The notes below the pieces were generated by a model. The model was given only the letters and a program-made list of their open reading frames with translations, searched no databases and was not told where the DNA came from. From a virus (taxonomy: Duplodnaviria > Heunggongvirae > Uroviricota > Caudoviricetes), in the IMG/VR virus record IMGVR_UViG_3300005918_000016: a stretch of 64,000 nucleotides of DNA; one strand, 5' to 3'. Of this stretch, positions 11,361-62,833 are shown in pieces. Positions within the stretch are counted from its first letter, which is position 1. Every line of letters starts with the position of its first letter. The position numbers and the translations under genes were made by a program.

Positions 11361-11398
11361 TCCAAGTGAGGGGCAAACGTCCCCTGGGAGGCTCACCG

Positions 11399-11830: not shown

Positions 11831-11874
11831 TTAAAGTGAGGGGGCAAATGACCCCTGACAAGGAGACCAACGCA

Positions 11875-22394: not shown

Positions 22395-23030
22395 CTAAGT
22401 CGCATCTTTTGGCAAAAGGTGCGTGGATTGAAACGGCGTGACCCCTGACAGATAGATGATCGCCTGACCGCTCACGGGGTCATAGGAACCCTTAACGGTC
22501 AGGGACGCCTCCGCCGGGCGGGACACCACGGGGATCTTGGGCCAGTCCCGGATGAGGATCCCAACCAGCCGCTCGGACTCCTGGACGATTCTGTGGGGCG
22601 GGATGAGCAGCGTGAGGGTGTCCCCATCGAAAGCAACGGGATGGAACCCCCGCTTCCACAACCACTCTAACAGGACGATCAACTCGGGGTGCTCCTCGGC
22701 CAGGATCTGGATGCCCTTCACCAAGGGGCGGAAGGCGTTGTCCGGTAAACCGAACGCCGAGTCAGGGATCGAGACCTCGGTGAGGCCCTCTGTCCAAGCA
22801 CCCCACTGGGGATTCACGGGAACGGTACGGGGAGCGCCACGCTTGCCCCACAGCGCCCCCAGAGCCTCCTGTTCCTGTGCCTGCTCCTCTTCGGTCAACT
22901 GGACCCACAGGAGGCGCTCACGGGACACGAAGCCCTGGTCCTCATCCGGGGTCCAGGGCAGTCCTTCGGGAAGTGCCCTGCCTACGAGGATCATGAGGGC
23001 CAGGTCACGGTGCTGTTCTAAAAGTGTCAT
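22395..23030 (-). CDS. hypothetical protein (C-terminal codons run through the solitary repeat, so the true end is uncertain)
   Basis: ORF only. Confidence 0.3.
   Translation of the reverse strand: MTLLEQHRDLALMILVGRALPEGLPWTPDEDQGFVSRERLLWVQLTEEEQAQEQEALGALWGKRGAPRTVPVNPQWGAWTEGLTEVSIPDSAFGLPDNAFRPLVKGIQILAEEHPELIVLLEWLWKRGFHPVAFDGDTLTLLIPPHRIVQESERLVGILIRDWPKIPVVSRPAEASLTVKGSYDPVSGQAIIYLSGVTPFQSTHLLPKDAT
22399..22434 (+). CRISPR. solitary CRISPR-like repeat unit GTCGCATCTTTTGGCAAAAGGTGCGTGGATTGAAAC
   Basis: Same length and orientation as the array repeat. 3' handle GTGGATTGAAAC is identical; stem changed by paired substitutions (GCATCTTTT/AAAAGGTGC). Confidence 0.75.
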
Positions 23031-23179: not shown

Positions 23180-23365
23180 ATGGAGCCCATCCTTCTGACT
23201 ATCAACGAGGTTGCCCGTTTGTTCGGGATGCACCCAAATTCGATCCGTAAACTCATGGGCGATGGCAGACTACCCTTTCTTAAGATCGATAAGTCGCTGC
23301 GGTTCGAAACTGATGCCGTGATGCTATTTATTGAGAAACTCAGGAAACAGAGAGCGAAGGATTGA
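23180..23365 (+). CDS. small HTH DNA-binding protein (excisionase/MerR-like)
   Basis: LTINEVARLFGMHPNSIRKLMGDG helix-turn-helix. Confidence 0.5.
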   Translation: MEPILLTINEVARLFGMHPNSIRKLMGDGRLPFLKIDKSLRFETDAVMLFIEKLRKQRAKD

Positions 23366-25789: not shown

Positions 25790-28060
25790 ATGAGCTATCC
25801 GACCCGTTCCGATGTGTCCCAGTGCTGTGCCGATTTTAAAGCGTGGCTTCGCAGGCAGGGGCTTGGGGGAAAACCCGCCAGGGACTACGCCCGATGTGTC
25901 CGGGCAGTAGAGAAACACACCTCTGGTTATTATTTCACCGCCGAAAATGTCGAGAAAGTGCTCAAGGTCAACACCCGTGTCTATCGGACAGCGTGGGCGG
26001 GCAAAAACGGTTTCATGGCCTACTGGGCGCAGCGGGAGAAAGAGGTGACCCAGGCCTGTGGTGTCCTGGACGTTCTGGCAGCAATGTCGGGTGGTGGGGC
26101 ACCAAAGCCGACCAAGGGGTCACCTATGAAGGTAGAACCCATCTCCCAGAAGGAGTTCGAGAAGATTTGTGGGGCACCGAAGCCGTCGCGTCAGCTTCCT
26201 GACTTCTCCCAGTTGGCAGAAGGCCACGTGGATGCCGTCAAAACGGATGACCAGGGTCACCTCCACGTCACTATGTGCATCGCTCGTAACAGTAACCTCG
26301 CCAAAATGGTGCTGGAGGGCCTCCCCCTGAGGTTGGTCCCGGCGGACCCGACCAAGCAGCCCCGATACACGGATGAGGATCTCCAGCAGGCACTGGAAGA
26401 GGACCGGGGGAAGGAGGGTCGTGCGGGTCGTGACTCCGCCCGGAACATCCTGAAAGAGATCATCGGCAGGTTGTTGGGGAAGACCAAGACGGAAGTCAAC
26501 GACATCGCTCGGTACTCCCACGCTAAGGACAACGAACTCAAGGACTTCATCCTGGAGTTGGTGCAGGCGCAGGCGTCCTACAGGAACGGACTGAACCTCG
26601 TCTACGAGACCCTGCTCGGGGCTGTCCCGGAGGATCTGGGGGACGGGGCGGGACGGAAGGCCCAGGCGATCCTGAAAGCGCTCCCTCAGAAGGATCTCAT
26701 CGAGGAGATCCTCGGGGATAAGCCTTCGGACGAATCGGGTCTGCTCACCTTCACCAACAGCCTCCTCATGGGGCTGGCCAGGGTGTTCGACACGTCGGAC
26801 GTGGACACGGGGATCGCTTGGAAGCCCGAGATGACGTCGGAACGGATCATCGAAAGCATCCACAGGATACGGACAAAACAGGAGAACGGCCTCGTTGTAG
26901 CGGCCCTGCGGCGGGTGGCCGAGAAGACCCTGGGCCTCAAACTCCCCCCCGGTTTGAGCCCTGAAATGTTGGAGCAGCACATCCAGCACAAGGTGTCTGA
27001 CTTGCAGGGGCTGTCCACCGGGGGTCGCCGGTGGGAACAGACCCTCTGGACTGTGTACCGGATGGTGGTAGAGTCTGCCCCTCCCGGTACGGCTTCCCCC
27101 GAGGGGATCATTGGAGCAGTCCAGGACAAGGTCAAAGCCATCCAGTCCGAGGCAGTCCAGTGGCGGGCCGCTCTTCTGAACATCATCCCGATGTTGGGAG
27201 GGGAACCCAACGGGGATGCGACCCCGCAGAGGGCGTTGGAGATCATCGGTGCCCTGCTCAAGGAACGGGATCTCAAAACGTTGCAAGCCGGGACGGGGAC
27301 ACCCACAGGAGCACCTGTCATGTGGGAACAGGCGCTTCGTTCCATTGCCGGTTTGATCGGGGGGGACGACTGGACTAACGCTGAAACCCCTGAGGAGATC
27401 CGGGACGAGACCGTAGCTCTGGTGCGATCCCTGGAGCAGCGGGAACGGTTGTGTGTCCTGTCCAAACTGGCAGGGATGATGGGCGACTCCTATATGGAGG
27501 TCGTGGACGATGCCGTTGGACCTGAGGGTGTGGGAGGTTCCCACCAGGATGTGGAACATGATGTCCTGGTGGCCCTTGTGAAGGCTGTCTCGCAGGACCG
27601 CACGGCACCCGAGGAGAAACCCTCGGGCCTCCCCTACAACCTGTTCAAGCTGGTCACCCTGCTTGGCAGTCCGCTGGTGGGGGACATCGCTTCGGCACCC
27701 AAGGAGGCGGGAACCACCGACGAGGCCAAGACCGAGTACATCGTCAACCTCATCGTTGAGCAGTGGAAGGAGATGGCTGGATGGCGACAGGCCATGCTCG
27801 ACCTGCGCCTCACGGACCTCAAGTACTATTGCCCCACTTTGTCGGAACAGGAGGTGGCAGTTGTCAGCCTCGTTGATGCCAAGAGGACCTTGAGCGAGGG
27901 CATCCGTAAACTCTTCCTGAGGAAGACCGCATCGCCAGTTTCCGCCGATCATGTCATTCTCGCAATGGCTGCTCGGTATGGTGAGAGGACGCACCTGGAG
28001 GTGCCCAAGTCTGCGGTGGACGATCTGTTGGGCACCCTCCAGGTACTGCTCAAAACTTGA
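25790..28060 (+). CDS. large protein with an N-terminal integrase-N/SAM-like domain (FKAWL...GFMAYW) and a long alpha-rich tail; member of a 4-gene family
   Basis: Shares the domain ending W-x-G-x-x-GF(M/L)A(Y/F)W with 45246, 58482 and 61136. GAGTAG at 25751 plus AGGAG RBS. Confidence 0.5.
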   Translation: MSYPTRSDVSQCCADFKAWLRRQGLGGKPARDYARCVRAVEKHTSGYYFTAENVEKVLKVNTRVYRTAWAGKNGFMAYWAQREKEVTQACGVLDVLAAMSGGGAPKPTKGSPMKVEPISQKEFEKICGAPKPSRQLPDFSQLAEGHVDAVKTDDQGHLHVTMCIARNSNLAKMVLEGLPLRLVPADPTKQPRYTDEDLQQALEEDRGKEGRAGRDSARNILKEIIGRLLGKTKTEVNDIARYSHAKDNELKDFILELVQAQASYRNGLNLVYETLLGAVPEDLGDGAGRKAQAILKALPQKDLIEEILGDKPSDESGLLTFTNSLLMGLARVFDTSDVDTGIAWKPEMTSERIIESIHRIRTKQENGLVVAALRRVAEKTLGLKLPPGLSPEMLEQHIQHKVSDLQGLSTGGRRWEQTLWTVYRMVVESAPPGTASPEGIIGAVQDKVKAIQSEAVQWRAALLNIIPMLGGEPNGDATPQRALEIIGALLKERDLKTLQAGTGTPTGAPVMWEQALRSIAGLIGGDDWTNAETPEEIRDETVALVRSLEQRERLCVLSKLAGMMGDSYMEVVDDAVGPEGVGGSHQDVEHDVLVALVKAVSQDRTAPEEKPSGLPYNLFKLVTLLGSPLVGDIASAPKEAGTTDEAKTEYIVNLIVEQWKEMAGWRQAMLDLRLTDLKYYCPTLSEQEVAVVSLVDAKRTLSEGIRKLFLRKTASPVSADHVILAMAARYGERTHLEVPKSAVDDLLGTLQVLLKT

Positions 28061-33232: not shown

Positions 33233-33439
33233 ATGAAACGAACCATGATCGTCCGAGTGACCACAACCGAATTTGAAACGTCTGATGGACGGGTGATCCC
33301 ACACCCCATTCCGTTTGATCCCGATGAGGTGCCTACCGTCGAAGAGTTCCAACAACAGTACAACAGGTGGCGCAAGGTCTTTGAAGATCAAGGACTGGTG
33401 TTTCCCATACCTGATGCGGGAGATGAGGATGCTGACTGA
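33233..33439 (+). CDS. hypothetical protein
   Basis: Preceded by the hairpin CCTCCAC...GTGGAGG. Confidence 0.3.
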   Translation: MKRTMIVRVTTTEFETSDGRVIPHPIPFDPDEVPTVEEFQQQYNRWRKVFEDQGLVFPIPDAGDEDAD

Positions 33440-34070
33440 TCGTCTCCTAGCTCTCACCAAAGCAGCCGAAGCTCTTGGTGTTCACCGGAATACGCTTCGG
33501 GACTGGGCTGATGAAGACAAGATCCCTCACGTTCGCACCGTGGGTGGGCATCGCCGTTTCAAGCAATCAGACATTGACAGGTTGCTGGGCAATCTCCCAA
33601 TCGATAAACAGCAAACGGAACGAGTTGTTATCTACTGCCGTGTGTCCAGCCACGATCAGAAAAAGTCAGGCGATCTTGAACGTCAGGCTGGACGGGTCAC
33701 GATACACAGCATCACGAAGCAGTACAAGTTGGTCGAAGTGCTTCAAGACGTTGGGTCGGGCATGTCAGACACACGCCCAAAACTCCGAAAGTTGTTCAAA
33801 CTGGTCAATGCCCATGAAATAGATAGGGTGGTTGTTGAACACAAAGACCGCCTGACTCGCTTCGGGTTCAATCTGGTCAATGCTTACTTCAACAGTCATG
33901 GTGTCACCATCGAGTGGACACAAGAAGTCCTTGGCAAAGGCTATCAGGAAGAGTTGGTCGAAGACATTTTGACGCTCATGTCGTCGTTCTCCGCTAAGAT
34001 TTATGGCAAACGTTCGGCAGAACGACGTAAGGCCAAGAAAGCAGCAGAAGCGGCAGAGACAGTCAAATGA
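33424..34070 (+). CDS. tnpA: IS607-type TnpA (MerR-like HTH plus serine recombinase)
   Basis: N-terminal HTH (LGVHRNTLRDWADEDKIP); VVIYCRVSSHDQ catalytic-Ser region; resolvase fold motifs. Confidence 0.75.
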
Positions 34071-35491
34071 AATGTCGCATCTTCCGACTTCATAAAGATA
34101 CCAATCAGTCCAAAATCGACAAGTTGGAAGTCCTACACAATGCCTACGTCAAGTACGTCCGTATCTGCGTACAAACGATGCTTGACCAGCGGGTCTATAA
34201 TCTCCCGAAAGCCGCCAAACAAACGTTCTTCCCACGGGCCACCAACCTTACGTCTCAGATCGAAAAGAACGCACGAGACCATGCAATACAAATCGTGAGC
34301 GCTTGGGCGAAAGCTACTTATGCTCGTAAGTTGAAGCCAACCATTACCAACCTTAAGCATGACGGTACCCTTACCGATCAGGATGCCAAAGCACTCTATG
34401 TCATCGGATTGAAGTCCATCAGTAAACCGTGGAAAGTTATTACTCAAGACCATCTCGACGCCTACCACACCCTGTTGGACACCTACGGAGGTAATAAGCC
34501 TATCGTAAGAAACAACCTACCCATGAGGTTGTCGGAGATGACGGCTCGATTGGAAGATACATCGAAGGCCCCTCTCGGGGATTTCTGGCTGAGAGTATCC
34601 TCGTTAGAAGCTCGTAAGTCCGTCTGGTTACCCCTCGTTGGGAATCCTTACATCCAACAGGCTGATCAGGTCAGTAAAGGCATTTCGGTCCGCAAGACCA
34701 AGCGAGGCTTCTGGCGCTTTGAAGCTGTCAGCAAGGCCGAGTGGGCCGTTCCTGAAGCACAGGAGGGTTGGCCTAAGTTGGGCGTTGACGTTGGTCTGAA
34801 CGTCCTTGCAGCTACCTCAGATGGAGTGACCTATGGTGAGCACGTCAAGCCCAAATTCGATAAGCTCTATGCTCGTGTCAGAAATCTCCGAGCAAATCGC
34901 CAACGACAGGATTTGAAAGACAACAGTCCAAGGTTAGATCACCTTGAGAGCAAGTTGAGTGGGTTGATCAAGACAGAAACGGGTCGTGTGGTGAATACCC
35001 TCATCGCCCGTCATCCCGAGACGGTGTTCGTAGTCGAAGATCTTGATCTTCGAGGTTGCCGGGGTCAAAAGCGGTTCGCTTACAGGGCGTTACAGATCAA
35101 CTTGGAAAGGAAGGCTCCAACAAAGAAAGTGAACCCTGCTTACACGTCGCAGGAGTGTCCTTCTTGTGGTTATGTTCATCGAGGAAACCGAAGTTCAATA
35201 AGGTTCCGTTGCCGCTGTTGTGGCAGGAAGGCTCACGCTGATTGGGTAGGAAGTGCTGGTGTGCTCAGACGTTCTGGGAACGAACACATTGGAACTGGTG
35301 ATCACCCACGAGGCGTAAAACGAGTGCTGAGAGAGCGATTCCGTCTTCGACGGACCAGTTCCTTGGGATTCGGGCGAAAAGAGCAACCGTCATTCGAGCC
35401 CTTACCGTTGGGCCGGAGGCTTACTACCGTTGGATCAGATTCGTCTGGCAGCGGCACAGCTTCAAACTTGATGCCTAGTAGATTCAAGTAG
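34067..35491 (+). CDS. tnpB: TnpB (RuvC-like, zinc finger)
   Basis: GVDVGLN (RuvC-I), VVEDL (RuvC-II), CPSCG...CRCCG ZnF, HADWVGSAG (RuvC-III). About 90% identical to the 54106-55572 copy. Confidence 0.85.
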   Translation: MKCRIFRLHKDTNQSKIDKLEVLHNAYVKYVRICVQTMLDQRVYNLPKAAKQTFFPRATNLTSQIEKNARDHAIQIVSAWAKATYARKLKPTITNLKHDGTLTDQDAKALYVIGLKSISKPWKVITQDHLDAYHTLLDTYGGNKPIVRNNLPMRLSEMTARLEDTSKAPLGDFWLRVSSLEARKSVWLPLVGNPYIQQADQVSKGISVRKTKRGFWRFEAVSKAEWAVPEAQEGWPKLGVDVGLNVLAATSDGVTYGEHVKPKFDKLYARVRNLRANRQRQDLKDNSPRLDHLESKLSGLIKTETGRVVNTLIARHPETVFVVEDLDLRGCRGQKRFAYRALQINLERKAPTKKVNPAYTSQECPSCGYVHRGNRSSIRFRCRCCGRKAHADWVGSAGVLRRSGNEHIGTGDHPRGVKRVLRERFRLRRTSSLGFGRKEQPSFEPLPLGRRLTTVGSDSSGSGTASNLMPSRFK

Positions 35492-35960: not shown

Positions 35961-35988
35961 GGGATCATCCTGGCCAGTGGCTGAGTAG
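35961..35988 (+). promoter_or_regulatory. GGGATCATC-N13-GAGTAG motif
   Basis: Exact consensus; AAGGAG; ATG at 36027. Confidence 0.55.
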
Positions 35989-43482: not shown

Positions 43483-44007
43483 TCAGTCAGTTTGTGAGTC
43501 CGGTCGTTCCGGCAAGTCCCCAAACAGAAGGGACCGCACGGCCTGGACCCCAGATTCTGTACCATCCCAGGTGTCGGGCAGTTCCATCCACGACTTCACC
43601 CCGACCTTGAGCGTGTCGCTGGAAGCGTCCCACAGAGGCCCTGGGACGGCCCGTATGACGCCGATGCCGCAGACCATAGACCACTCCACGGATCCGTCAT
43701 CCAGGCGCACAGCGTCCGGCTGCTGGGACACGGCCACGATAACGAGGTTGGCTTCAGCAGCCTCATGGGCCACATCAGCCAGCGCCTGCACCCGTTCCTT
43801 GATTGTGACATTCCTAAAGAAAGCCCACGCCTTCCGGGGATTGGCGTCCCTCAACGAAGACGAAAACAGCGGGAAGATCACTCGGTCAGGCTTAATAATC
43901 TGGAGGACATTCTCACCCTCACAGCCCAAGACCAATGCATCGGAATTCGGGGCCTTCCTAAAGATCGGCAGTTCGTTTTCCCTCATCTGGTACACAAAGT
44001 AGCGCAT
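43483..44007 (-). CDS. hypothetical protein
   Basis: ORF. Confidence 0.4.
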   Translation of the reverse strand: MRYFVYQMRENELPIFRKAPNSDALVLGCEGENVLQIIKPDRVIFPLFSSSLRDANPRKAWAFFRNVTIKERVQALADVAHEAAEANLVIVAVSQQPDAVRLDDGSVEWSMVCGIGVIRAVPGPLWDASSDTLKVGVKSWMELPDTWDGTESGVQAVRSLLFGDLPERPDSQTD

Positions 44008-45245: not shown

Positions 45246-46682
45246 ATGAGCTTCCCTACCAAAGCCGAGATCCAAAAGCACCTCCCGGAGTACGTCCGGT
45301 GGGTGGAAGCGACCCACAATCTCTCACAGAAAACGGTCCGGTACTATGTCCAGTGTATCCTAGACCTGATCCAAGACCTGTTAGACGTACCCGCACACCA
45401 GTTCGAAGAAAGGGTGACAACCCGTCTGCAGACCATCCTGACCTTCCAGTCATCCTTTTGGAATGGGCCAGCCGGATTCATGGCCTATTGGCGGAGGACG
45501 GAGGCGTCTCCCTCTCTGAGTCAGAACAATGGAGGAGTTATGAGCTTCCCTACCAAAGCCGAAGTCAAAAAGCACCTTCCGGAATACATCCGGTGGACCG
45601 CTCATAACCGGGGATTGCAGGGGGAGACGATCAAGCACCATCTCCTGTACATCCAGCGATTGATCGATGTGTCCCCAGAACGGTTCACGGAAGAGTGGGT
45701 TGCCCTCAAACAATCGGGGCAGTCTAACTTTGACACAAGCCATTGGTTAGGACAGTCCGGGTTCATGGCCTACTGGAACGAAGCCAAGGGACCGATAGGC
45801 CGGTTGACCACCGAAGACGTCATCAACCTCTTCCCTGAATACCGGACCTGGGTCGACAGACATCATGATCTGAGGGGCCTCAGTTTGGTCAATTTCTGTC
45901 GGTACATCCAAAACGTGATTGGGAAGAGGGGCGTCAGCCAGATGGTCATCGCTCTAGCTTTAAAAACCCAGCCAGAGTGGTACACCGACGCCTGGGAAGG
46001 CCCCAAAGGCTTCCTGACCTTCCTCAAGGAGTACAGCGCCTCAGAGACCCCAACGGAGGACACCTACAATCCGATAGTGACATCAGAAGACAACTTCTCC
46101 CCAAATAAAAAGTTCTATGATGAACAGAACAATCCCTGGGAAACAGCGATGCATCGTGTGGCCCGTTCCTTAAGGATCTATGATAGTGAGAACATGTCCG
46201 CAGAAGTCGTGGCGGACAAGATCCAGGATGTCGTCCAGATCGTGACGAACCGGCCCAACCCGTGGAAGGAAGCGCTCTTGTCCGTGACCAATGCCTTCGG
46301 CTACCCCCCAGAGGGTGACCCCGGACGACCGGCCCGGCAGTTCGCTGGCATGTTCATCCGTCACCTCAAGGGGTCACCGTCGCTGATGCGGGGGCGTACC
46401 TCCCGTGACTGGTTGGCGGCGTTCCGCAAACTGTCAGTCCTGCTGGATGGTGATGATCTGGTGAAGCCCGGAGCGGACCCTGACGACTGTTACACCCTGA
46501 TGGCGAAACTGATCCGGCTGCGGGATGCGGACACCCAGGCCAAGGTGTCGGGCTTCAAGGAAATGCTGACTCAGGCCCTCGCCGCTCGGTACATTGAGAA
46601 AGAGAAAAACACCCTCCCGAGTACCCCCGTGGACGACCTACTCAGGAAATTGTCCCAGATCCCGACGACTCCCGAAGCCTGA
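45246..46682 (+). CDS. tandem integrase-N/SAM-like repeat protein (3 repeats), paralog family
   Basis: Repeats LPEY(V/I)RW...GF(M/L)(A/T)(Y/F)W. GAGTAG at 45201. Confidence 0.5.
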   Translation: MSFPTKAEIQKHLPEYVRWVEATHNLSQKTVRYYVQCILDLIQDLLDVPAHQFEERVTTRLQTILTFQSSFWNGPAGFMAYWRRTEASPSLSQNNGGVMSFPTKAEVKKHLPEYIRWTAHNRGLQGETIKHHLLYIQRLIDVSPERFTEEWVALKQSGQSNFDTSHWLGQSGFMAYWNEAKGPIGRLTTEDVINLFPEYRTWVDRHHDLRGLSLVNFCRYIQNVIGKRGVSQMVIALALKTQPEWYTDAWEGPKGFLTFLKEYSASETPTEDTYNPIVTSEDNFSPNKKFYDEQNNPWETAMHRVARSLRIYDSENMSAEVVADKIQDVVQIVTNRPNPWKEALLSVTNAFGYPPEGDPGRPARQFAGMFIRHLKGSPSLMRGRTSRDWLAAFRKLSVLLDGDDLVKPGADPDDCYTLMAKLIRLRDADTQAKVSGFKEMLTQALAARYIEKEKNTLPSTPVDDLLRKLSQIPTTPEA

Positions 46683-47214: not shown

Positions 47215-47251
47215 GTCGCATCTTCTGAAAAGAATATGCGTGGATTGAAAC
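47215..47251 (+). CRISPR. solitary CRISPR-like repeat unit GTCGCATCTTCTGAAAAGAATATGCGTGGATTGAAAC
   Basis: 37 nt; 3' handle identical; stem variant retained. TTGACA at 47170 lies 40 nt upstream. Confidence 0.7.
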
Positions 47252-49558: not shown

Positions 49559-50671
49559 TTACCCAGAACCGGCATAAACCGGCAGAGGATTTGGTAGTAA
49601 ACGGAGACCATAGACTCCCGCCAACCCAAGAAGCTCCAAGTTCTTGGCAGCATTGAGGTCGGCATGTTCGGAATGCCCACAATGCACACACTTGAACTTG
49701 TCCCCTCTCCGATTTCGCCTGTCCCATCTACGGCATACTCGACAGAACTGCGAGGTTTTCCAGGGGTTCTTCCGTTCCAGCCGGACCCCCTCTTCCTCAC
49801 ATTTCCGTTCAATGAGATCCGCCGTATAGGCATAAAGCCAATGAGACAACCGCCTATTAAACCGACGAGGAAACTTTCCCCGTGTACCACGTTTCACATG
49901 TTTCAGGTCCTCGATGCACAGCTCTTGGACACCACTCAAATCAAGAGACTTGAGGGCGTGACCGACCACCGATTTGATATAGGTTCTTGTGTGCTTCCTG
50001 CGACGTCCAAATTGTTGGATAAGGGCATATGGTTCATCTGCGATCTGTTGGCCATCAGAGAAGACAAGACCAGCCTTGTAGTTGGAATCCATCCCGAGGA
50101 TTTTTCCGATCTTCCGCTTGGGGGCTTTGGGCTTCTCCAGCAAGAGGTCTATGTAGAGATCGTCGTTTCTACGACCGAGCCGAATAGACTTGCTGATCTT
50201 CCAGCCGTTACTGAGCATCTTGTTGATGTGTGCGGTGCTCTTTGTAGGAATGACCACTCGGGGGGCTCCAGAGCCGATCAGTTTGATAGCGTAATCGAAT
50301 GCCCCATCGAACTCCGAAACGGTTACGAAATGCGAGCACAGTGTGGCTGTGTGTCTACGAAGACTAGGTTTCCTGTGCTTGTTGGCGTGGGCAGATCGGA
50401 CCGTTTCCTTCGCTTGTTTGGCAAGGGCTTGAGCAAGTCGGGTCGTGATTTTGAACCTGTCTCGTCCTCGATGTACTGTAGGGAGGTCTGCGAGAGTAGC
50501 CGAGAAGTCCTTTCGTTGCCAAAAGAGATCTACAAAGTACTGCGTGGTGTCGTGGCACAATCGCAGAAAATCTACAAGTTCGTCCCGCTTTCCTGTGTTC
50601 AGATCGTTGATGAAGATGCGACTGGAGCGTCGCATAGTAGGGACAGAGAAGGTCTTGTGCGCCTTACGCAT
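49559..50671 (-). CDS. tnpB: TnpB (RuvC-like, zinc finger)
   Basis: ILGMDSN, CIEDL, CRVCRR...CVHCG and HADLNAAKNL motifs. Confidence 0.8.
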   Translation of the reverse strand: MRKAHKTFSVPTMRRSSRIFINDLNTGKRDELVDFLRLCHDTTQYFVDLFWQRKDFSATLADLPTVHRGRDRFKITTRLAQALAKQAKETVRSAHANKHRKPSLRRHTATLCSHFVTVSEFDGAFDYAIKLIGSGAPRVVIPTKSTAHINKMLSNGWKISKSIRLGRRNDDLYIDLLLEKPKAPKRKIGKILGMDSNYKAGLVFSDGQQIADEPYALIQQFGRRRKHTRTYIKSVVGHALKSLDLSGVQELCIEDLKHVKRGTRGKFPRRFNRRLSHWLYAYTADLIERKCEEEGVRLERKNPWKTSQFCRVCRRWDRRNRRGDKFKCVHCGHSEHADLNAAKNLELLGLAGVYGLRLLPNPLPVYAGSG

Positions 50672-51280
50672 CTACTTTTTCTTCTCCAGCGCTTGGATTG
50701 CTGCTTCTGTCTTCTTCCTGCCTCGTCGCTGCCCGTAAAGACGAGCACAGAAGGACGTTATGATGGCCACGAGGTCTTCCATAAGATCGGAGGTCTTGTC
50801 TTCAGCGACGTTGACGACTTCGATCCGAAACGGCGCAAGGGCTACGAACCAGCGGAAACCGAATCGAGTGAGCCTGTCTTTGTGCTCTACAAGAAGCACA
50901 TCGAAATCCTTAGCAGCCAGAAGCCGGTGGAGTTTTCGTCGCTCGTCGTTAATGCCAGAGCCGATTTCTGTGACCACCTGAACAATTTGCCAGCCTTTTG
51001 CTGTAGCATACCGACGGAGCCCATCAACTTGCGAAGCCAGTGCTGCCTTGTTCTCAGATGAAGATTCCCTTGCGTAGATAGCGCACCGACACTCTGTCGT
51101 CTTCGGGGTCACTCCTGCCTGTTCTTCGACCCACCATGTGGGGATAAACCAGCGTCCAGTGTCGGACCGGATAGCAGGTATTTCTCCCTTGGCGGCTCTT
51201 CTACGAAGAGCTACTCCTTGAAGACCAAGGAGTTTGGCTGCCACCGACGCACGAACTCGAAGTGGTTTTTCATCCCTCAT
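50672..51280 (-). CDS. tnpA: IS607-type TnpA serine recombinase
   Basis: N-terminal HTH; CAIYARESS catalytic-Ser region; resolvase-like core. Confidence 0.75.
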   Translation of the reverse strand: MRDEKPLRVRASVAAKLLGLQGVALRRRAAKGEIPAIRSDTGRWFIPTWWVEEQAGVTPKTTECRCAIYARESSSENKAALASQVDGLRRYATAKGWQIVQVVTEIGSGINDERRKLHRLLAAKDFDVLLVEHKDRLTRFGFRWFVALAPFRIEVVNVAEDKTSDLMEDLVAIITSFCARLYGQRRGRKKTEAAIQALEKKK

Positions 51281-53830: not shown

Positions 53831-54144
53831 CAATGAAAAGTCACGAAACGATCATCGTCGAACAAACGGTCTCGGACGGGGACTCGGGCTGGATTCACGG
53901 GATGATGACTACCGTCATCCGTTTCATTGTGCCCGAGTTGGACAACCTCGCAATCACCGTTCACAAGGACAGGCTGTACATACTCACCGGCTTCGACCTG
54001 AAGGAGGCACCCGACACCAAGGTCGTGGGGCACTGCCAGCTTCCCGCCGAGACGGTCAACAAAGCCCTGGCCTATGCTGATGCCAAAAAGGAAATCATCA
54101 AAATCCTACAGCCCCTTGTGGATGAGCACATCACCGTTCCTTAA
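53827..54144 (+). CDS. hypothetical protein
   Basis: ATGA overlap. Confidence 0.4.
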   Translation: MTMKSHETIIVEQTVSDGDSGWIHGMMTTVIRFIVPELDNLAITVHKDRLYILTGFDLKEAPDTKVVGHCQLPAETVNKALAYADAKKEIIKILQPLVDEHITVP

Positions 54145-55572
54145 AACCTGCTGGAATGTAACAGGCATCAAGTTTGAAGCTGTGCCGCTGCCAGACGAAT
54201 CTGATCCAACGGTAGTAAACCTCCGGCCCAACGGTAAGGGCTCGATTGACGACCGCTCTAATCGCCCGAATCCCAAGGAACTGGTCCGCTTAACACGGAA
54301 TCGCTCTCTCAGCACTCGTTTTACGCCTCTCGGATGATCGTTAGTACCGATGTGTTCGTCTCCAGAACGTCTGAGCACACCAGAACTTCCCACCCAATCA
54401 GCATGAGCTTTCCTGCCGCACGAGCGGCAATGGAACCTTGTTGAATTTCGGTTTCCTCGATGAACATAACCACAAGAAGGACACTCCTGCGAAGTATAAG
54501 CTGGGTTCACCTTCTCAACCGGAGTCTTCCTTTCCAAGTTGACTTGTAACGCCCTGTAAGCAAACCTCTTTTGACCCCGACAACCTCGAAGATCAAGATC
54601 CTCAACCACGAACACTGTCTTAGGATGACGAACGATAAGGGTGTTTACTACACGACCCGTTTCTGTTTTGATCAACCCACTCAGTTTGCTCTCAAGGTGG
54701 TCCAACTTTGGACTGTTGTCCTTTAAGTCCTGTCGTTGGCGATTTGCTCTGAGATTCCTGACACGAGCGTAGAGTTTATCGAACTTGAGTTTGACGTGTT
54801 CACCATAGGTCACGCCATCTGATGTAGCTGCGAGCACATTCAAACCAACGTCCACACCCAACTTAGGCCAACCTTCCTGTGCTTCAGGAACAATCCATTC
54901 GTCCTTGCTGACCGCCTCAAAACGCCAAAAGCCTCGCTTGGTCTTGCGGGCTGAAACACCTTTGCTAACTTGGTCAGCCTGCTGGATGTAAGGATTCCCA
55001 ACGAGAGGTAACCAGACGGACTTGCGAGGTTCTAACGAAGACACCCTCAGCCAGAAATCCCCGAGAGGAGCTTTAGTTGTGTCTTCCAATCGAGCCGTCA
55101 TTTCTGACAACATCATGGGCAGGTTGTCCCTTACGATAGGCTTATTGCCTCCGTATGTGTCCAGCAGAACGTGGTAGGCGTCGAGGTGGTCTTGGGTAAT
55201 GAATTTCCATGGCTTACTGATGGATTTTAATCCAATGGTGTAGAGTGCTTTGGCGTCTTGTTCGGTAAGGGTACCATCGTGTTTGAGATTGGTGATAGTC
55301 GGCTTCAATTTGCGAGCGTAAGTGGCCTTGGCCCAAGCGCTCACGATCTGGATGGCGTGGTCTCGTGCGATCTTTTCGATTTGGGATGTAAGGTTGGTAG
55401 CTCGTGGAAAGAACGTCTGTTTGGCGGACTTCGGGAGATTGTGGGTTCGCTGGTCGAGCATTGTTTGTACGCAGATACGGACATACTTGACGTAGACTTT
55501 GTGCAGGGCTTCCAACTTATCGATTTTGGACGGGTTGGTGTCCTTGTGAAGTCGAAAGATGCGACACTTCAT
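54106..55572 (-). CDS. tnpB: TnpB (RuvC-like, zinc finger)
   Basis: About 90% identical to the 34067-35491 protein; all RuvC/ZnF motifs intact. Confidence 0.85.
   Translation of the reverse strand: MKCRIFRLHKDTNPSKIDKLEALHKVYVKYVRICVQTMLDQRTHNLPKSAKQTFFPRATNLTSQIEKIARDHAIQIVSAWAKATYARKLKPTITNLKHDGTLTEQDAKALYTIGLKSISKPWKFITQDHLDAYHVLLDTYGGNKPIVRDNLPMMLSEMTARLEDTTKAPLGDFWLRVSSLEPRKSVWLPLVGNPYIQQADQVSKGVSARKTKRGFWRFEAVSKDEWIVPEAQEGWPKLGVDVGLNVLAATSDGVTYGEHVKLKFDKLYARVRNLRANRQRQDLKDNSPKLDHLESKLSGLIKTETGRVVNTLIVRHPKTVFVVEDLDLRGCRGQKRFAYRALQVNLERKTPVEKVNPAYTSQECPSCGYVHRGNRNSTRFHCRSCGRKAHADWVGSSGVLRRSGDEHIGTNDHPRGVKRVLRERFRVKRTSSLGFGRLERSSIEPLPLGRRFTTVGSDSSGSGTASNLMPVTFQQVLRNGDVLIHKGL
54133..54430 (-). 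ncRNA. omegaRNA-like scaffold
   Basis: Conserved block at the tnpB 3' end/right end. Confidence 0.55.
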
Positions 55573-56072: not shown

Positions 56073-56100
56073 GGGATCATCTGTGACACCACCAGAGTAG
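56073..56100 (+). promoter_or_regulatory. GGGATCATC-N13-GAGTAG motif
   Basis: Exact consensus; AGGAGG; ATG at 56120. Confidence 0.55.
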
Positions 56101-57210: not shown

Positions 57211-57834
57211 GTGCGAAATCACGGAATGACCACCGACGACGGCAAGCTCACGTCCGAGCAACGGGCCAACTGGAAACGGACCCTGAGCGCCTCTTTCGGG
57301 CTACCCTCCTGGTTCCTCACGGACAAGGATGTCCAGGAGTTCCGGGACAAGACCCAGCGGGAAGCTGATCAGAAGGCCCTGGAACGAGCCGCAAAGGAGG
57401 CCCTCACTCGCCAGGAAGCCTCCTGTACGGCATACAAAGTCGTCGTCAGTACTCTCCGGGGTGACTTAGAATCCTTTTCCCAGTACTCAGCCTGGGCCTA
57501 CAGCTACACCCCCGAGAAATGGATGAGCGCATTCCCTGGCTCAGGTCTTTTCGTGTTCGCCACCCAGGACCAAGCTATGAACTTTGCCAGCGCATCCATT
57601 TTCCGAAGTCAGGTTTGGGGGTGCGAGTGTGAAGGCCCAATGGCAACGCCGCCTATGGTCCTGGGCATGCTGTATTCCGATGTGCCCCTTCAGCGCTTCT
57701 GGTCCAATCACCATCTGGGGCTCCCGCAGCCGCTGGAACCCCACCTCATCAAACCCCCGGAGGGGACGCTGTTGTTCAAACGGGTCAAATTGATCAAGCG
57801 GCTCACCCCCCAGGCCAAACAAGGTCCCTTCTAA
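57211..57834 (+). CDS. AYKVV/GLFVF family protein with N-terminal extension
   Basis: TAYKVV...GLFVFAT...PPEGTLLFKRVKLIKRL. Confidence 0.45.
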   Translation: MRNHGMTTDDGKLTSEQRANWKRTLSASFGLPSWFLTDKDVQEFRDKTQREADQKALERAAKEALTRQEASCTAYKVVVSTLRGDLESFSQYSAWAYSYTPEKWMSAFPGSGLFVFATQDQAMNFASASIFRSQVWGCECEGPMATPPMVLGMLYSDVPLQRFWSNHHLGLPQPLEPHLIKPPEGTLLFKRVKLIKRLTPQAKQGPF

Positions 57835-58389
57835 CGCCCGGAGAGCCTCCCACAACTTGATCTCCGTGACCTTCCTGTCCCAGCAGTCAGGCAACTCTAC
57901 CCCCCCCCCGATCTGCAGCTCGTCCGTGGCGATACCATAGAGATCGTCATCGTTCTGAAGACACCCGACCCCACACTGCAGGCTCCAAACGGTTCCTTCA
58001 CTACCATCTCTCTTGGGGGCTTCCAACGTCTCAAAGGCGATGACCATCAGGTCACAACCCGACTGGACCTTCATCAGGTCGTCCACCTTGGACCGGAGGA
58101 GAGTTCCGACTGAGGCCACAATGTTCCGGGGGCTGGGGAACACCTTGTCCGTCACAATGATGGTGAACATCGGAAGGAGTACCCGCTTGTTCGGCTCTGG
58201 GATCTGAATCACCCCCACACCGTCATCCCCGATGGCCCACGCTGGAGTGCCCTGTACCTTCTCAAGGATCGGGACGGCTACACCGCTTGCCCGGATGTTC
58301 ACGTACTTCATGGACGCCCGTGGGGCGGACTCGACTCGGGGAGGGGTATCGAACCCTGGAGGAAATACAGCATTCGGTGGGTAACGCAT
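57541..58389 (-). CDS. hypothetical protein; the 3' ~290 nt overlap the convergent gene 57211-57834, so the extent is doubtful
   Basis: The ORF occupies the otherwise empty 57835-58389 interval. Confidence 0.25.
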   Translation of the reverse strand: MRYPPNAVFPPGFDTPPRVESAPRASMKYVNIRASGVAVPILEKVQGTPAWAIGDDGVGVIQIPEPNKRVLLPMFTIIVTDKVFPSPRNIVASVGTLLRSKVDDLMKVQSGCDLMVIAFETLEAPKRDGSEGTVWSLQCGVGCLQNDDDLYGIATDELQIGGGVELPDCWDRKVTEIKLWEALRALEGTLFGLGGEPLDQFDPFEQQRPLRGFDEVGFQRLREPQMVIGPEALKGHIGIQHAQDHRRRCHWAFTLAPPNLTSENGCAGKVHSLVLGGEHEKT

Positions 58390-58433
58390 TGGGGTCTCCT
58401 TTTGTCAGATCACTCTACCCCAGTCGGAACTGT

Positions 58434-58461
58434 TGGATCATCTGACACCGTCAGGGAGTAG
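58434..58461 (+). promoter_or_regulatory. TGGATCATC-N13-GAGTAG motif
   Basis: 13-nt spacer; AGGAGG; ATG at 58482. Confidence 0.5.
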
Positions 58462-58481
58462 AGGATGTCAGGAGGTGCCCT

Positions 58482-61073
58482 ATGCACGAAAAGATCCGCA
58501 AGTCCTTGATCCGCAAACTCATCCCCGATTTTCGCAACTGGCTCTACACGAAGGCCCGACAAGGCAAGGGACTGGCCGAGAAGACCATCACGTACTACCT
58601 GCTCAACCTGGATCGCCTCCTGAAGGTGCTCCCGGACCCGTTCACGATCGATGACGTGAACAAGGTAGTGGCGGACGACTGGGCCAGCCAAACGAGCAAG
58701 AACAAGCAGACGCATATGGCGTCCGTTTGGAGCAACCTCCAGGTGTTCCGTCTCACCCTGCTCCTGGCCAAGGACACGCCCCCGGCCATCTGGGGTGTGT
58801 CCCCCAAGACCGTCATCAACCGGCTCCCCGAGTACAGGATTTGGATGGAGGCGGGGGGGCTGCTCAAGCACGAAACGGTAGAGGAGTACCTGCGAATCGC
58901 ACACATCGTCCTGGGCTGTGTGACCAACGTCACGACCGAGAACCTGAAGGAGGCCCTGACCGGGCATCCTCTCCGTTACCGTTATGCCACACTCGGGCAG
59001 TCTGGGCTGCTGACATGGTGGAAGAACGTCACGGTAACCCCGGACACGGCAAGGCTCCCCGCCAACATCCCGACCGTCACCTGGGACATGCCCGAAGACT
59101 TCTCCGTCCCACTTGCCGCCATCCCGGCGTACAGGGAATGGCTGGTCAAGGAACAAAACTTCAAGTCCAGTTCCGTTCGGGTCTGGGTCAGTGCTGCGGA
59201 ACGCATGATCCACAAGGGCACCCCGATGAACATCAACACCCTCGTGCGTGCGACCTACATCAACTACTACGCCTGGATCGGCCCCTCCGGTTTCGTGCCC
59301 TTCTGGAAGCAGTATAACAAGCCGTCCGAGGTCACGGAACCGGATCCGATCCCTGCAAAGCCCAAGACGCCCAACAAGAACAAGGAGACCCCCTTGAAGT
59401 ATTGTCACCTGTTCCCGACCGAAGCCCAGGTAGCCCAGTCCCTGTCTGAGTACCCCGATTGGGTGGTGCGCCGGGGTTGCACCCCCAACACGGCGGAGGT
59501 TTACCGCAAGGCCCTCCGGCAGTTGCTGAAGACCGTCACGTCCTGGGACCAGGAAACCGTAAATAAGGCGCTCTCAGGAATGAAACAGACGCCCAACTAT
59601 GCCTGGAACGGAAACTACGGCTTCCTGGCCTTCTGGAACGAACGGAACGCCCTTCCGATCAGCCACCACCAGATCCAGTCGTTGACTCCCGCCTTCCGCT
59701 CCTGGATGAGGGAACAGGGTCACACCGAGCGGGTGGCTGGCGACTACGCCAAGGCAGTCCTTGGGCTGTCCCTTAAGGTCAAGTCCTTCAGCCCGACCGA
59801 CCTCGCCCCGGTGCTCAACAAGTCCAAGCACTACAGGAACGCCTGGAGAAAGTTCATGATCTTCTACCAGGCCCAGGACATCTCGGTCGAGGCCCCCACG
59901 AAGGCCACGCCGGTCCCCGAGCCTGAGCCGGTAACGGACACGCCCACCGACATCAGGAAGCCCACCAAGGCCGACGTCGAGGCCCTCAAGGGCGCATTTG
60001 AACTCTGGCTGAGCACAAGCCGCAAGCTCAGTCGGAAGTCGACCGGCAACCGTATGAGTGGACTCCGGCAGATCATCAAGCACTCCACCTCACCCACTTT
60101 GGATGACATCTACTCCGTGCTGAACATCCCAATGTCCAACTTCTACCGGGACGCTTGGCTCGGGGGCTCCGGCTTCATGCACTTCTGGACTGAATACAGG
60201 GACATTCAGACGCCCCTCATCGTCATGACGCCCCCGGTGGAGACGCCTGAACCCGCCGAGGCGCTCTCCAAGCCCCTGACCTGGGAGGGGGGCCTCAAGA
60301 CCGTGGCCAAGTCCCTCGACTCCAACTATGATCCCAAGGCAAATGCCAAGGAAATGGTCGACAGCATCATCAAGGAATGGTCGGAAGACAATGACTTGTT
60401 GAATGTCCTGATGACCCAGGCAGGTATCGAAACACCCCAGGACAGCACAATGGGCAAATGTTTCCAGCTTCTCCTGGATGCAGCGGAGGCCCCCAAACCC
60501 GAGACCACCCCGCAGTCCGATGTGTATGAACAGAGTTTCCGCACCCTGATCAAGACCATGTTCCACGGCAGCGCCCTCACTGACCCTACTGAACTGACTG
60601 AGTCCTTCCGTGACGGTTGGGCAACGGATTGGGCTAGACTCAACAACTGGATGGACGAAGCGGGAATCAACAGGGCGGATCCCCTCATCACACTCAGGGA
60701 GGCCATCCGCCTCCTCAAGGCCGACTGGGACTTCAAGTCTGTACCCCAGGACAACCCCTACAAGGACGCCCTGGTGCAGATCAGGAAGACCCTCAACATC
60801 ACCGGGGTCACCGACCCCCACGAGGTAGCGGAAAGTATCCGCAACACCTGGATGGTTCTCGAAACGCTGCTGACCGAGCTTCTGCACAAGGCCGGATGGT
60901 CCAAGGGGCAGACCCTCACCTTCCCCGAAGGACTTCGGTACCTCAAAAGGAACTGGCCTGACAGGGGTACCCCGGCCAACCTGACCCAGGAGATCCTCGC
61001 CGCACGTTGGCGGGAGACCAAGACCGGAACCGACCCCAAGGTGCTGGATGCACTCCTCGCCAAGCTCACATGA
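58482..61073 (+). CDS. 863-aa protein with >=5 tandem integrase-N/SAM-like repeats plus an acidic/alpha-rich C-terminal region
   Basis: Repeats (I/L)P(E/D)(Y/F)R.W(L/M)...T(I/V)..Y...GF(L/V)(A/P)FW. Confidence 0.5.
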   Translation: MHEKIRKSLIRKLIPDFRNWLYTKARQGKGLAEKTITYYLLNLDRLLKVLPDPFTIDDVNKVVADDWASQTSKNKQTHMASVWSNLQVFRLTLLLAKDTPPAIWGVSPKTVINRLPEYRIWMEAGGLLKHETVEEYLRIAHIVLGCVTNVTTENLKEALTGHPLRYRYATLGQSGLLTWWKNVTVTPDTARLPANIPTVTWDMPEDFSVPLAAIPAYREWLVKEQNFKSSSVRVWVSAAERMIHKGTPMNINTLVRATYINYYAWIGPSGFVPFWKQYNKPSEVTEPDPIPAKPKTPNKNKETPLKYCHLFPTEAQVAQSLSEYPDWVVRRGCTPNTAEVYRKALRQLLKTVTSWDQETVNKALSGMKQTPNYAWNGNYGFLAFWNERNALPISHHQIQSLTPAFRSWMREQGHTERVAGDYAKAVLGLSLKVKSFSPTDLAPVLNKSKHYRNAWRKFMIFYQAQDISVEAPTKATPVPEPEPVTDTPTDIRKPTKADVEALKGAFELWLSTSRKLSRKSTGNRMSGLRQIIKHSTSPTLDDIYSVLNIPMSNFYRDAWLGGSGFMHFWTEYRDIQTPLIVMTPPVETPEPAEALSKPLTWEGGLKTVAKSLDSNYDPKANAKEMVDSIIKEWSEDNDLLNVLMTQAGIETPQDSTMGKCFQLLLDAAEAPKPETTPQSDVYEQSFRTLIKTMFHGSALTDPTELTESFRDGWATDWARLNNWMDEAGINRADPLITLREAIRLLKADWDFKSVPQDNPYKDALVQIRKTLNITGVTDPHEVAESIRNTWMVLETLLTELLHKAGWSKGQTLTFPEGLRYLKRNWPDRGTPANLTQEILAARWRETKTGTDPKVLDALLAKLT

Positions 61074-61085
61074 CAGATTCAACAC

Positions 61086-61113
61086 TGGATCATCTGCTGC
61101 CGCCAGGGAGTAG
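61086..61113 (+). promoter_or_regulatory. TGGATCATC-N13-GAGTAG motif
   Basis: 13-nt spacer; AGGAGG; ATG at 61136. Confidence 0.5.
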
Positions 61114-61135
61114 ATGATCCAGTAGGAGGAACACG

Positions 61136-62833
61136 ATGAAACACCCGACCAGGAAACAAGTCAGGGCCTTCCAGCCCGAGTACGCTGAGTGGCTCCAGCA
61201 GATGGGCGTGGCCCCAAGGCGGATCAGAGCGAACACCCTGTGCCTTGACATGCTGCTCCGAGAAACACACTCGCCCTTTAACGAAAAAACCGTGGCCCTC
61301 GCTGTCATACAAACGACAGGCATAGGCCTTCAAGAAGCTTGGGCCACGTCCCAATTCAGCTTCCTGGCCTTCTGGAAGGACAAGACCGGACCCACTCCGG
61401 GTGACTTCCAGTCCCACAAGACCCGATTTTACAGTTGGTTACAACACGGGGACGACCCCAACGTACAGCGTTATAGCGAGCGGGTCACCACCGATACAAT
61501 GTATGCCCTTACGGGGCTGTCCCACAAGGGCAAATCGTTCCGGTCCTGTGACCTGGAAGAGACCCTCAACCGTTCCGGGCACTACAGGTTGGCCTGGAAG
61601 CGTTTCCTGAAGTTCTGGGACACCATCGACCAGCCCCCACTGGAACCCCCGGCAACGTCCCAACCGGCACCTCCGGCCCCCGTGAAGGCCCCGGAGCAGG
61701 CGGACACCTCCCTCCCTCCTCTGACCCGGTACAACGTCCTGAAAAACCTGACACGGTACAACAGGTGGCTGCAGGTGGCTGACGGGTTCGACACCACCAA
61801 CCTCCCCGCACGGCAATGGGCCATGGCGAGGATCCTTCGCCTGTGTCACTCCGAAAATATGGATGACCTCCCCCAGATCCTTGTAGAAAACGGCGACCTC
61901 CACGCTGTGTGGCACGGCATCGATTTCGGCTTCCTCACCTTCTGGGCGTTTCAGTATGGACCCAAGGACGCCTCCGAGGGGTCCACGGACCAGCCGAAAC
62001 CCCCCACCATGACCGAAGCCCTGGATGTCCTGGACGACTACGAGCGGTGGCTGAGGGTCTGCCACGGGTGGCGTCACAGCGCTGTAAGGGGACGATATCG
62101 GACCATGATGCTGGGCCTCAGCCGGTGCCAATCCGAAGACCTGTCCGACCTGTACCAGTTTACGAAAACGGACGACGCCTTCCACACGGCGTGGCACGGC
62201 ATCGATTTCGGCTTCCTCACCTACTGGAATCTCCGGCACGAGAAGGTCCAGATCCCGAAGACTCCCGTTACACCAATGGGCGTGTGGGAACAGTGCCTGC
62301 GCTCCGTGTTTCAAGCACTCAGCCCTGGCACCTTCCCCCCTAGCGACCCCCGCAAGTTGGCCGACACCATCAACAAGACCTGGGGGGAGACCCACGAACT
62401 GCTGTCCAAACTGCTCACCAAGGCAGGCGTCACGACCAAGATCATGACGGCCACCGACGCCCTCCATGCCCTTCTGGTGGTATGGCCGGAACCCGAGCAT
62501 CCCGAGACCGAGCCTACCCCGAGCGACGTGGCACACGACAGGGAGAACGAATCTACCAGGATGCCCACCAAGATTGATGTCAAAAGGGCGGTGGGGGACT
62601 ATCAGGCATGGCTGAAGGACATCCAGGGACTGAATACCACGGCAATCTGGGAATGCACCGTGGATCTCCAAGGGAGCGTCTGCGCCTGCTGCTCCCACGA
62701 TCTGGAAGATCTCCCCAGGATCAAGAGCGAACACAAGCCGTTCAAGGAAGCCTGGGACGGCCCCAATGGCTTCATGGCCTTCTGGAATGATCGCCGCCGG
62801 ACCCCAAAAGCGATCAAGAAAACGCCCCCGTAG
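61136..62833 (+). CDS. 565-aa tandem integrase-N/SAM-like repeat protein (>=5 repeats)
   Basis: Repeated ...Y..WL...(H/D)G..FGFL(T/A)(F/Y)W. Confidence 0.5.
   Translation: MKHPTRKQVRAFQPEYAEWLQQMGVAPRRIRANTLCLDMLLRETHSPFNEKTVALAVIQTTGIGLQEAWATSQFSFLAFWKDKTGPTPGDFQSHKTRFYSWLQHGDDPNVQRYSERVTTDTMYALTGLSHKGKSFRSCDLEETLNRSGHYRLAWKRFLKFWDTIDQPPLEPPATSQPAPPAPVKAPEQADTSLPPLTRYNVLKNLTRYNRWLQVADGFDTTNLPARQWAMARILRLCHSENMDDLPQILVENGDLHAVWHGIDFGFLTFWAFQYGPKDASEGSTDQPKPPTMTEALDVLDDYERWLRVCHGWRHSAVRGRYRTMMLGLSRCQSEDLSDLYQFTKTDDAFHTAWHGIDFGFLTYWNLRHEKVQIPKTPVTPMGVWEQCLRSVFQALSPGTFPPSDPRKLADTINKTWGETHELLSKLLTKAGVTTKIMTATDALHALLVVWPEPEHPETEPTPSDVAHDRENESTRMPTKIDVKRAVGDYQAWLKDIQGLNTTAIWECTVDLQGSVCACCSHDLEDLPRIKSEHKPFKEAWDGPNGFMAFWNDRRRTPKAIKKTPP

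Follow-up and report, generated by a model that had tools for sequence, protein, structure and literature searches.

Four proteins of an Antarctic huge phage carry arrays of divergent core-binding domains without a recombinase catalytic domain

Proteins in which the core-binding (CB) domain of tyrosine recombinases is repeated in tandem without a catalytic domain are already known from type III effectors. Rhizobial Nop proteins (e.g., Bel2-5), HopBL1 from Pseudomonas, and HsvG/HsvB each have one to six tandem CB-fold units, for which XerD and IntI4 are the best structural matches and in which the conserved residues mainly belong to the hydrophobic core (bioRxiv 10.64898/2026.07.12.738046). For HsvG and HsvB of Pantoea agglomerans, the regions shown by experiment to bind DNA map onto the CB arrays, and acidic activation repeats come after them (bioRxiv 10.64898/2026.07.12.738046; PMC7819608). 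Here, four genes (A, B, C, and D) encoding proteins of a comparable architecture are described from a phage, in a 64,000-nucleotide stretch of the IMG/VR record IMGVR_UViG_3300005918_000016 (Caudoviricetes), hereafter the window. All four proteins have exact matches on the 528,260-bp JGI contig 3300025697 Ga0208769_1000001, of which the window represents approximately 340–404 kb, and the same proteins are present in a further ~20–40 assemblies, 16 of them with contigs of 0.2–1 Mb. Ga0208769_1000001 is the published circular ~528-kb 'huge phage' from Ace Lake, Antarctica, the largest direct-terminal-repeat (DTR) contig in IMG/VR, for which the authors confirmed terminase and capsid genes (PMC8116208). 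Among complete phage genomes recovered from IMG/VR, the one that carries these four genes is the largest.

The initial annotation of the window had described four open reading frames (ORFs) with one to at least five copies of a repeat, all of which are present on the + strand and together contain 15 units (A, one; B, three; C, six; D, five). A hidden Markov model (HMM) of the unit, seeded with 11 clear units, finds all 15, including the four outside of the seed, and the units were rescored with a 15-unit profile; against a six-frame translation of the window (909 ORF segments) only A, B, C, and D are matched, with the next best match at E = 0.11. Gene A (25790–28060; 756 amino acids) encodes one CB unit (25790–26041), a long acidic helical region, at least three short copies of a second repeat termed T2 (27026–27448), and a C-terminal module (27962–28057). 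Gene B (45246–46682; 478 amino acids) encodes three CB units (45246–45506, 45540–45791, and 45798–46040), three short T2 copies (46131–46544), and the C-terminal module (46563–46658). In gene C (58482–61073; 863 amino acids), six CB-like units make up the array (58482–60203), with HMM envelopes at residues 1–88, 107–185, 208–280, 309–390, 391–467, and 491–574 (58482–58745, 58800–59036, 59103–59321, 59406–59651, 59652–59882, and 59952–60203), and are followed by three long T2 copies of ~75–80 residues (60279–60521, 60522–60752, and 60753–60971; span 60279–60971) and the C-terminal module (…ILAARWRETKTGTDPKVLDALLAKLT; 60975–61070). Gene D (61136–62833; 565 amino acids) has four CB units (61136–61390, 61391–61633, 61709–61960, and 61994–62242), then a single T2 (62282–62551) and a fifth CB unit (62555–62800), without the C-terminal module. 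CB units were delimited with the unit HMM and T2 copies with the T2 HMM (in C also by alignment), while the modules were placed by an alignment of A, B, C, and seven relatives. The units are separated by acidic linkers of 12–30 residues rich in proline, threonine, and glutamate, except that C4–C5 and D1–D2 abut directly. Gene C is read as a single gene on about 23 metagenome contigs. The 90% cluster of gene A includes members of 267 and 499 amino acids, both from one 188-kb JGI contig, and the 50% library holds a 195-amino acid A variant (P0004) that diverges past residue ~190; the short members mean that A is split or truncated in some assemblies, as either a natural frameshift variant or an assembly error.

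The unit is ~80 amino acids in size and had been annotated with a near-invariant W-x-G-x-x-GF ending; the canonical form, W-x-G-x-x-GF(M/L)x(F/Y)W, is present in 10 of the 15 units. In C5 and D2 the unit closes with a shorter stretch that is closer to integrases, (H)YRxAW(R/K)xF(M/L)xF(Y/W), and lacks the G-x-x-G insert, the endings of D1 and B3 are slightly deviant, and C1 and C2 are degenerate. Across 33 units from the phage and its relatives, the conserved positions are P4, T5, Y16, W19, L20, G25, A68, W69, G71, G74, F75, L76, F78, and W79, and the integrase helix-B signature L-S/x-x-x-T-x-x-x-Y is retained in most units. The units are conserved as protein and diverged as DNA, with nucleotide similarity restricted to the codons of the terminal motif (66–88%), and are old, diverged domain duplications; the motif-only similarity, together with the lack of any tandem array found by TRF, rules out a recent tandem duplication of the DNA.

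An AlphaFold2 model of unit B2, built with the 15-unit alignment, is a confident bundle of five helices (predicted local distance difference test (pLDDT) 92.5; predicted template modelling score (pTM) 0.82) that can be superposed on solved CB domains. XerD is the best structural match and the ten best structural matches are all DNA-binding CB domains, with sequence identities to recombinase CB domains of 7–17%. In Pfam, the best three families for protein C are Phage_int_SAM_5, SAM_4, and SAM_1, with Phage_int_SAM_5 scoring 26.4 bits against a cut-off of 22.3 (E = 8.9e-6) as the total of several weak stretches; A, B, and D fall below this cut-off and single units reach E-values of 0.02–0.05 at best. 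An exhaustive search with hmmsearch and the 15-unit profile, covering 1.84 billion representative proteins, returned 52 matches at E <= 1e-3, from which C and D themselves are missing, such that the library is incomplete for the array family. The weak matches (E-values of 1e-5 to 1e-3) are mostly SAM-like, and nine of the 10 that were checked are Pfam Phage_int_SAM proteins, four of which also carry the Phage_integrase catalytic domain. The only PHROG match at E < 0.01 is a weak one of protein C to phrog_5127 'integrase' (E = 4e-4). A resemblance to SAM-like domains had been annotated for the first half of the unit; the resemblance holds, and it is the whole unit that has the CB fold. In common with the CB domains of tyrosine recombinases (XerD, XerA, XerH, lambda Int, IntI4, and phage Brujita Int; Phage_int_SAM_1/4/5), the units have the helix A/B signature (Y/F)xxWL…L(S)xxTxxxY and an aromatic last helix, and the profile matches are weak but reciprocal, whereas the G-x-x-G insert (W-x-G-x-x-GF-x-x-FW) sets the phage units apart from recombinase CB domains. 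The unit is a divergent CB/SAM-like domain with a family-specific G-x-x-G insert that divides the last helix. Membership in the Pfam family DUF7215 was considered for the last unit of D and rejected (20.2 bits against a cut-off of 27, and matched by one of the 15 units when scanned singly).

Unlike recombinases, which usually have one or two CB copies, the phage proteins have one to six tandem copies and no catalytic domain. As had been annotated, a recombinase domain is absent: none of the four proteins matches Phage_integrase at E <= 1, and none contains an R-H-R-Y active site. The remaining sequence, between and after the units, is made up of linkers, T2 copies, and the 30-residue module. 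With the catalytic domain looked for and absent, the proteins are not recombinases.

The regions beyond the arrays had been described as long acidic helical tails, which is accurate for A, B, and C, while D ends in a CB unit and has its single T2 between CB4 and CB5. The tails are built from the T2 repeat, which the initial annotation had overlooked, with the pattern (N)P-W/Y-E-x-A/x-L-x-x-V/I-x-x-x-L … (D/S/T)P-x-x-V/L, and occur in a short form of ~45 amino acids (three copies in B and at least three in A) and a long form of ~80 amino acids (three copies in C and one in D), which in C reads W/Y-E-x-x-L-x-x-V…DP-x-x-V…. Most of the T2 region is acidic, including the first two copies in C. The T2 HMM matches a relative outside of the training set (L011a; E = 8.5e-9) and no other ORF in the window. 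Also overlooked was the conserved end module of ~30 amino acids, xxLLxxALAAR(Y/W)xExxxxGxxxSAVDDLLxxL, shared by A, B, C, and seven relatives. Within ~85 kb of the phage, the module HMM matches CB-array proteins alone, which rules out a role for the module as a general targeting tag.

Most of the CB units are basic, with 12 of the 15 net positive (isoelectric points (pI) of 7.9–10.3), including all six units of C (pI 8.7–10.3). Lysine and arginine are enriched (27–58% of the 33 units) at positions 6, 29, 32, 36, 39, 40, 43, and 44, of which those from 29 to 44 line the side of helix 2 that faces away from the core in an i/i+3/i+7 stripe; helix 3 is acidic. The net charge of the units and the basic stripe are consistent with DNA binding, and it is tentatively proposed, as a reading that we favor while holding it to be well short of assured, that the four paralogous, non-enzymatic proteins act as multivalent double-stranded DNA-binding regulators or organizers with a partner-docking tail, expressed from phage-type promoters. 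Each of the mostly basic CB units would contact a short segment of double-stranded DNA in the manner of the XerD, lambda Int, and Cre domains, and an array could engage several sites simultaneously and with high avidity. A common partner, such as the transcription machinery or another phage protein, may be docked by the tail and by the C-terminal helix pair that is shared, and the proteins would act as non-structural regulators or organizers of phage or host DNA, apparently expressed from the phage's own promoter type.

Several results weigh against this proposal. Foldseek searches of PDB and BFVD with the unit returned no significant match (lambda Int ranked first and IntI4 fourth in PDB), profile searches of PDB sequences gave nothing significant, and an hhalign comparison of a 33-unit profile to the single XerD sequence was misaligned and not significant (probability 6.7%). 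No target DNA motif for the arrays was identified, and the analysis covered ~85 kb of the 528-kb genome. AlphaFold2 predicts the tail of C to be all-helical with low confidence (pLDDT 48.8; not used for a fold search), which makes docking by the C-terminal module a conjecture. Further, units D3–D5 are slightly acidic and the strongest conservation lies in aromatic and glycine core residues rather than in basic surface residues.

The acidic units and the aromatic conservation would also suit protein–protein adaptors, in which MRG-like peptide- or protein-binding units scaffold or sequester host or phage proteins with the aromatic patch and the C-terminal module as surfaces, and scaffolds typically combine flexible linkers with a conserved terminal peptide. 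The MRG domains of MRG15, Eaf3, and MSL3, which are eukaryotic proteins, have lower structural scores than CB domains and no sequence signal, and were not the best match by either structure or sequence. All ten of the best structural matches being DNA-binding CB domains with Z-scores clearly above those of the MRG domains, the sequence-level matches being integrases, and the majority of units being basic all speak against adaptors; the last CB helix has hydrophobic core residues at the positions with which the conserved aromatics align, so that these need not form a surface patch. Adaptors are accordingly considered unlikely, if still deserving of some weight.

The closest precedent for a multivalent DNA-binding array is that of the effectors. 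Like them, the phage proteins have tandem CB units without a catalytic domain, XerD among the best structural matches, and conservation of core residues, and the order of a basic array followed by an acidic repeat tail resembles that of HsvG/HsvB. In contrast to the phage proteins, the effectors are secreted and act in plant nuclei, with nuclear localization signals and C-terminal OTU/ULP protease or BPN domains, for which there is no Pfam match in the four phage proteins; the phage tail instead has T2 repeats and the ALAARY…DDLL module. The likeness is one of architecture, an analogy rather than family membership, and the CB domain was probably recruited independently in the effectors and the phage arrays. 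The same solution was published very recently for the plant-targeting bacterial effectors, and, if the phage arrays do bind DNA, multivalent DNA binders would seem to have been assembled from the CB domain more than once. CB arrays as such being known from the effectors, it is the phage setting of the CB/SAM-like arrays that is new.

Other proteins share part of this architecture. Among the weak profile matches are uncharacterized metagenomic proteins with tandem SAM-like repeats and no Phage_integrase domain, namely P0010 (a zinc ribbon and five Phage_int_SAM_5/DUF3853 repeats), P0033 (four repeats), and P0030 (several SAM_1 and an HTH_23), but unlike the phage arrays these score significantly in Pfam SAM families and lack the W-x-G-x-x-GF-x-x-FW motif, T2, and the C-terminal module. 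Integrase-like phage regulators without recombination activity are represented by MrpR of SPbeta and SroF of phi3T, the matched chains of which are ~320 residues, single-copy, and not CB-only arrays. That length is the full length of a recombinase, which we take to indicate a CB domain plus a catalytic-type domain. A set of six repeat proteins of 2,000–3,200 amino acids (P0006–P0009, P0012, and P0018) matches the last third of the unit profile 6–12 times each (e.g., …TGIVGFLSYWAQT… in P0018) and is probably an unrelated repeat family that shares the GF-x-x-YW helix.

True relatives of the arrays number about a dozen (P0002, P0003, P0005, P0011, P0013, P0014, P0016, P0022, P0026, P0029, P0031, and P0040), all of them metagenomic and none with a name or an NCBI/UniProt accession. 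P0013 has one unit and an A-like tail, is 33% identical to A over 465 amino acids, and lies at a locus syntenic with that of A, where the flanking genes are 68, 51, and 36% identical; it is the orthologue of A. P0005 has two units, one long T2, and the C-terminal module, and a 298-amino acid gene (54% identical) is common to its locus and to the region downstream of D, such that a single locus has two units in the relative compared to 11 (C and D) here. P0002 matches C4–C5 with 37% identity, and on its contig an array gene with at least three units precedes it and the start of a further unit follows it, such that there are at least three adjacent array genes. The number of units varies across the relatives and would be evolutionarily adjustable. 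On the P0002 contig (L011/L063; Ga0307992_1022995, ENA k141_709523), a partial CB unit lies in a second frame (900–1349), overlapping the upstream array gene at its end, just before P0002; a frameshift or decay of the unit, or a programmed frameshift, could account for it.

Word-indexed homology searches returned nothing for the unit alignment and B alone for protein B, a related-locus search of IMG/VR with B found none, 50,697 phage genomes contained no match by blastn or tblastn, and NCBIfam and PADLOC gave nothing meaningful for the four proteins. The terminal signature proposed as a metagenomic search key, back-translated as W-x-G-x-x-GF-x-x-FW, matched 107 metagenomic loci; it recovered the already known P0002 contig, with the others spurious, while none of the 58 loci in GTDB genomes was real, and in IMG/VR there was one match to the bare motif, outside of the unit-HMM comparison. 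That the proteins do not belong to a described family, as had been suggested, stands at the level of sequence (no significant Pfam domain and no NCBIfam, PADLOC, or phage-genome match), while their architecture has a precedent (bioRxiv 10.64898/2026.07.12.738046). The four proteins and their relatives constitute a small, phage-restricted family of catalysis-free CB-domain arrays with a second repeat and a terminal module. Its fold and architecture are clearly defined and out of the ordinary for a phage, and it has very few members.

Decayed integrase genes, or repeats that are functionless and due to chance or composition, would be made plausible by the several resolvase/TnpB elements in the genome as mobile-element debris. 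The frames are intact (478–863 amino acids) and identical on at least 20 contigs across several years, orthologues are conserved at syntenic loci with 25–37% identity, the predicted fold is confident, nothing remains of a catalytic domain, and the units have diverged in DNA yet are conserved in protein, all of which leaves this explanation next to no probability. Gene decay is the sole alternative excluded.

The expression of C and D bears on the proposed role as non-structural DNA-binding regulators. A phage-specific, promoter-like bipartite motif, GATCATC-N13-GAGTAG, has 23 matches in the window (22 on the + strand) compared to an expectation of 0.07, with a fuller form of (G)GATCATC-N13-GAGTAG(A)-N5-GT, and a Shine-Dalgarno sequence with a start codon typically follows it after 20–45 nucleotides. 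The adjacent C and D had been annotated with a GAGTAG promoter each, and there are exact motif copies on the + strand 21–23 nucleotides upstream of both starts: that of C (58436–58461) ends 21 nucleotides before the ATG and is followed by an AGGAGG Shine-Dalgarno sequence, and that of D (61088–61113) is enclosed by an inverted repeat between the two genes (61084–61123; 18 nucleotides, 89% complementary, 4-nucleotide gap). A and B have the GAGTAGA half alone. The motif is unlike the sigma-70 consensus, and this suggests that the phage encodes a specificity factor of its own; around C and D, sigma-70 promoters and intrinsic terminators are predicted no more often than by chance. The exact copies at C and D and the lack of virion genes nearby are consistent with expression as non-structural proteins. 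Pattern matches to the motif are also located at 6747–6772, 7401–7426, 8015–8040, 11335–11360, 13506–13531, 35963–35988, and 56075–56100. A conserved hairpin-like element, GTGAGGGGCAAA(T/C/G)GACCCCT, is present at 7432–7450, 8044–8065, 10035–10056, 11365–11385, and 11834–11856, directly downstream of several of the promoter-like motifs in the 5′ leaders of small genes.

The window consists chiefly of small ORFans on the + strand. Recognizable genes include an NAD-dependent ligase, RNase H, a DHH phosphoesterase, an SPFH protein, a GmrSD_N protein, an Apyc1-like metallo-beta-lactamase, and several resolvase/TnpB pairs, and no tRNA genes were found in the window. The neighborhood of C and D has small ORFans, the Apyc1-like gene, the ligase, RNase H, and CRISPR-Cas, and no virion genes were detected around the arrays in the neighborhood examined. 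This composition is at odds with virion-associated proteins that would be packaged or ejected with the 528-kb genome, such as internal DNA-condensing or ejection proteins with the C-terminal module as an incorporation signal. Basic DNA-binding domains and a shared terminal module do fit a packaging tag. Expanded paralogous families of internal virion proteins are frequent in huge phages, which also counts in favor of such a role. The module is absent from D and from all other ORFs in the ~85 kb, no PHROG structural match was obtained, and no structural genes are nearby, and a place in the virion is therefore regarded as improbable.

The same neighborhood could be taken to favor recombinase decoys, which would occupy the core sites of the host or a rival (dif of XerC/D, or att) or heterodimerize with CB domains, blocking recombination in the course of takeover or superinfection exclusion. 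The region holds genes of a counter-defense type (Apyc1-like and CRISPR-Cas), the CB domain is the module that places recombinases on core sites, with XerD as the best structural match, and copies without catalysis have the expected look of a competitive inhibitor. An identity of 7–17% to any recombinase CB domain does not indicate mimicry of a particular host enzyme, and the second repeat and the C-terminal module are left unexplained, such that little credence is given to decoys.

A more elaborate form of the proposed DNA-binding function would have the proteins serve as modular, expandable DNA readers, with each CB unit recognizing its own short site, the number of units tuned to bridge or coat arrays of sites in the 528-kb genome or the host chromosome, and the C-terminal module recruiting one effector, as a phage 'chromatin' or transcription-programming system; this is a speculative extension and rather unlikely. 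If DNA binding and unit-wise specificity are true, the arrays would represent a new modular DNA-recognition scaffold and a handle on the organization and transcription of very large phage genomes, and if not, there is still the clean definition of a small phage-restricted protein family. The genes of huge phages are mostly without an assignable function, and four large ones now have a confident fold, a domain map, and a testable hypothesis; they show that a phage has the CB domain of recombinases in multiple tandem copies uncoupled from the catalytic function.

Several other features of the window were noted. Upstream of C on the opposite strand, a 282-amino acid gene (57541–58389, −) has a weak paralogue at 43483–44007 (−) and a 27%-identical counterpart near P0005 on the related contig L010, and no family match was obtained in NCBIfam or PADLOC. 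Long antisense ORFs at 58410–59408, 60090–61085, and 61439–62734 are regarded as by-products of the G+C-rich coding strand. A 255-amino acid protein with a metallo-beta-lactamase fold (21623–22390) has a precomputed match to Pfam Anti-Pycsar_Apyc1 and is a candidate cyclic-nucleotide-degrading counter-defense gene. Four TnpB/Cas12f-like genes (Cas12f1-like_TNB, OrfB_IS605) are located at 23331–24761 (+), 34067–35491 (+), 49559–50671 (−), and 54106–55572 (−), two of which are paired with serine resolvases (about 33430–34070 and 50672–51280); the copy at 23331–24761 is without a counterpart at the syntenic locus of a related phage and is therefore a recent insertion. A CRISPR array at 1–1112, with at least 14 copies of a 36-nucleotide type I-C-style repeat (GTCGCATCCTCTAACAAAGGATGCGTGGATTGAAAC) at a period of 71–77 nucleotides, extends past the left end of the window and has degenerate final copies, and cas3-cas5-cas8c-cas7 lie directly upstream of the window. 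Solitary copies resembling the CRISPR repeat at 2475–2510, 22399–22434, and 47216–47251 are distant from the array, in a gene-dense region, and could be mini-arrays or repeat decoys.

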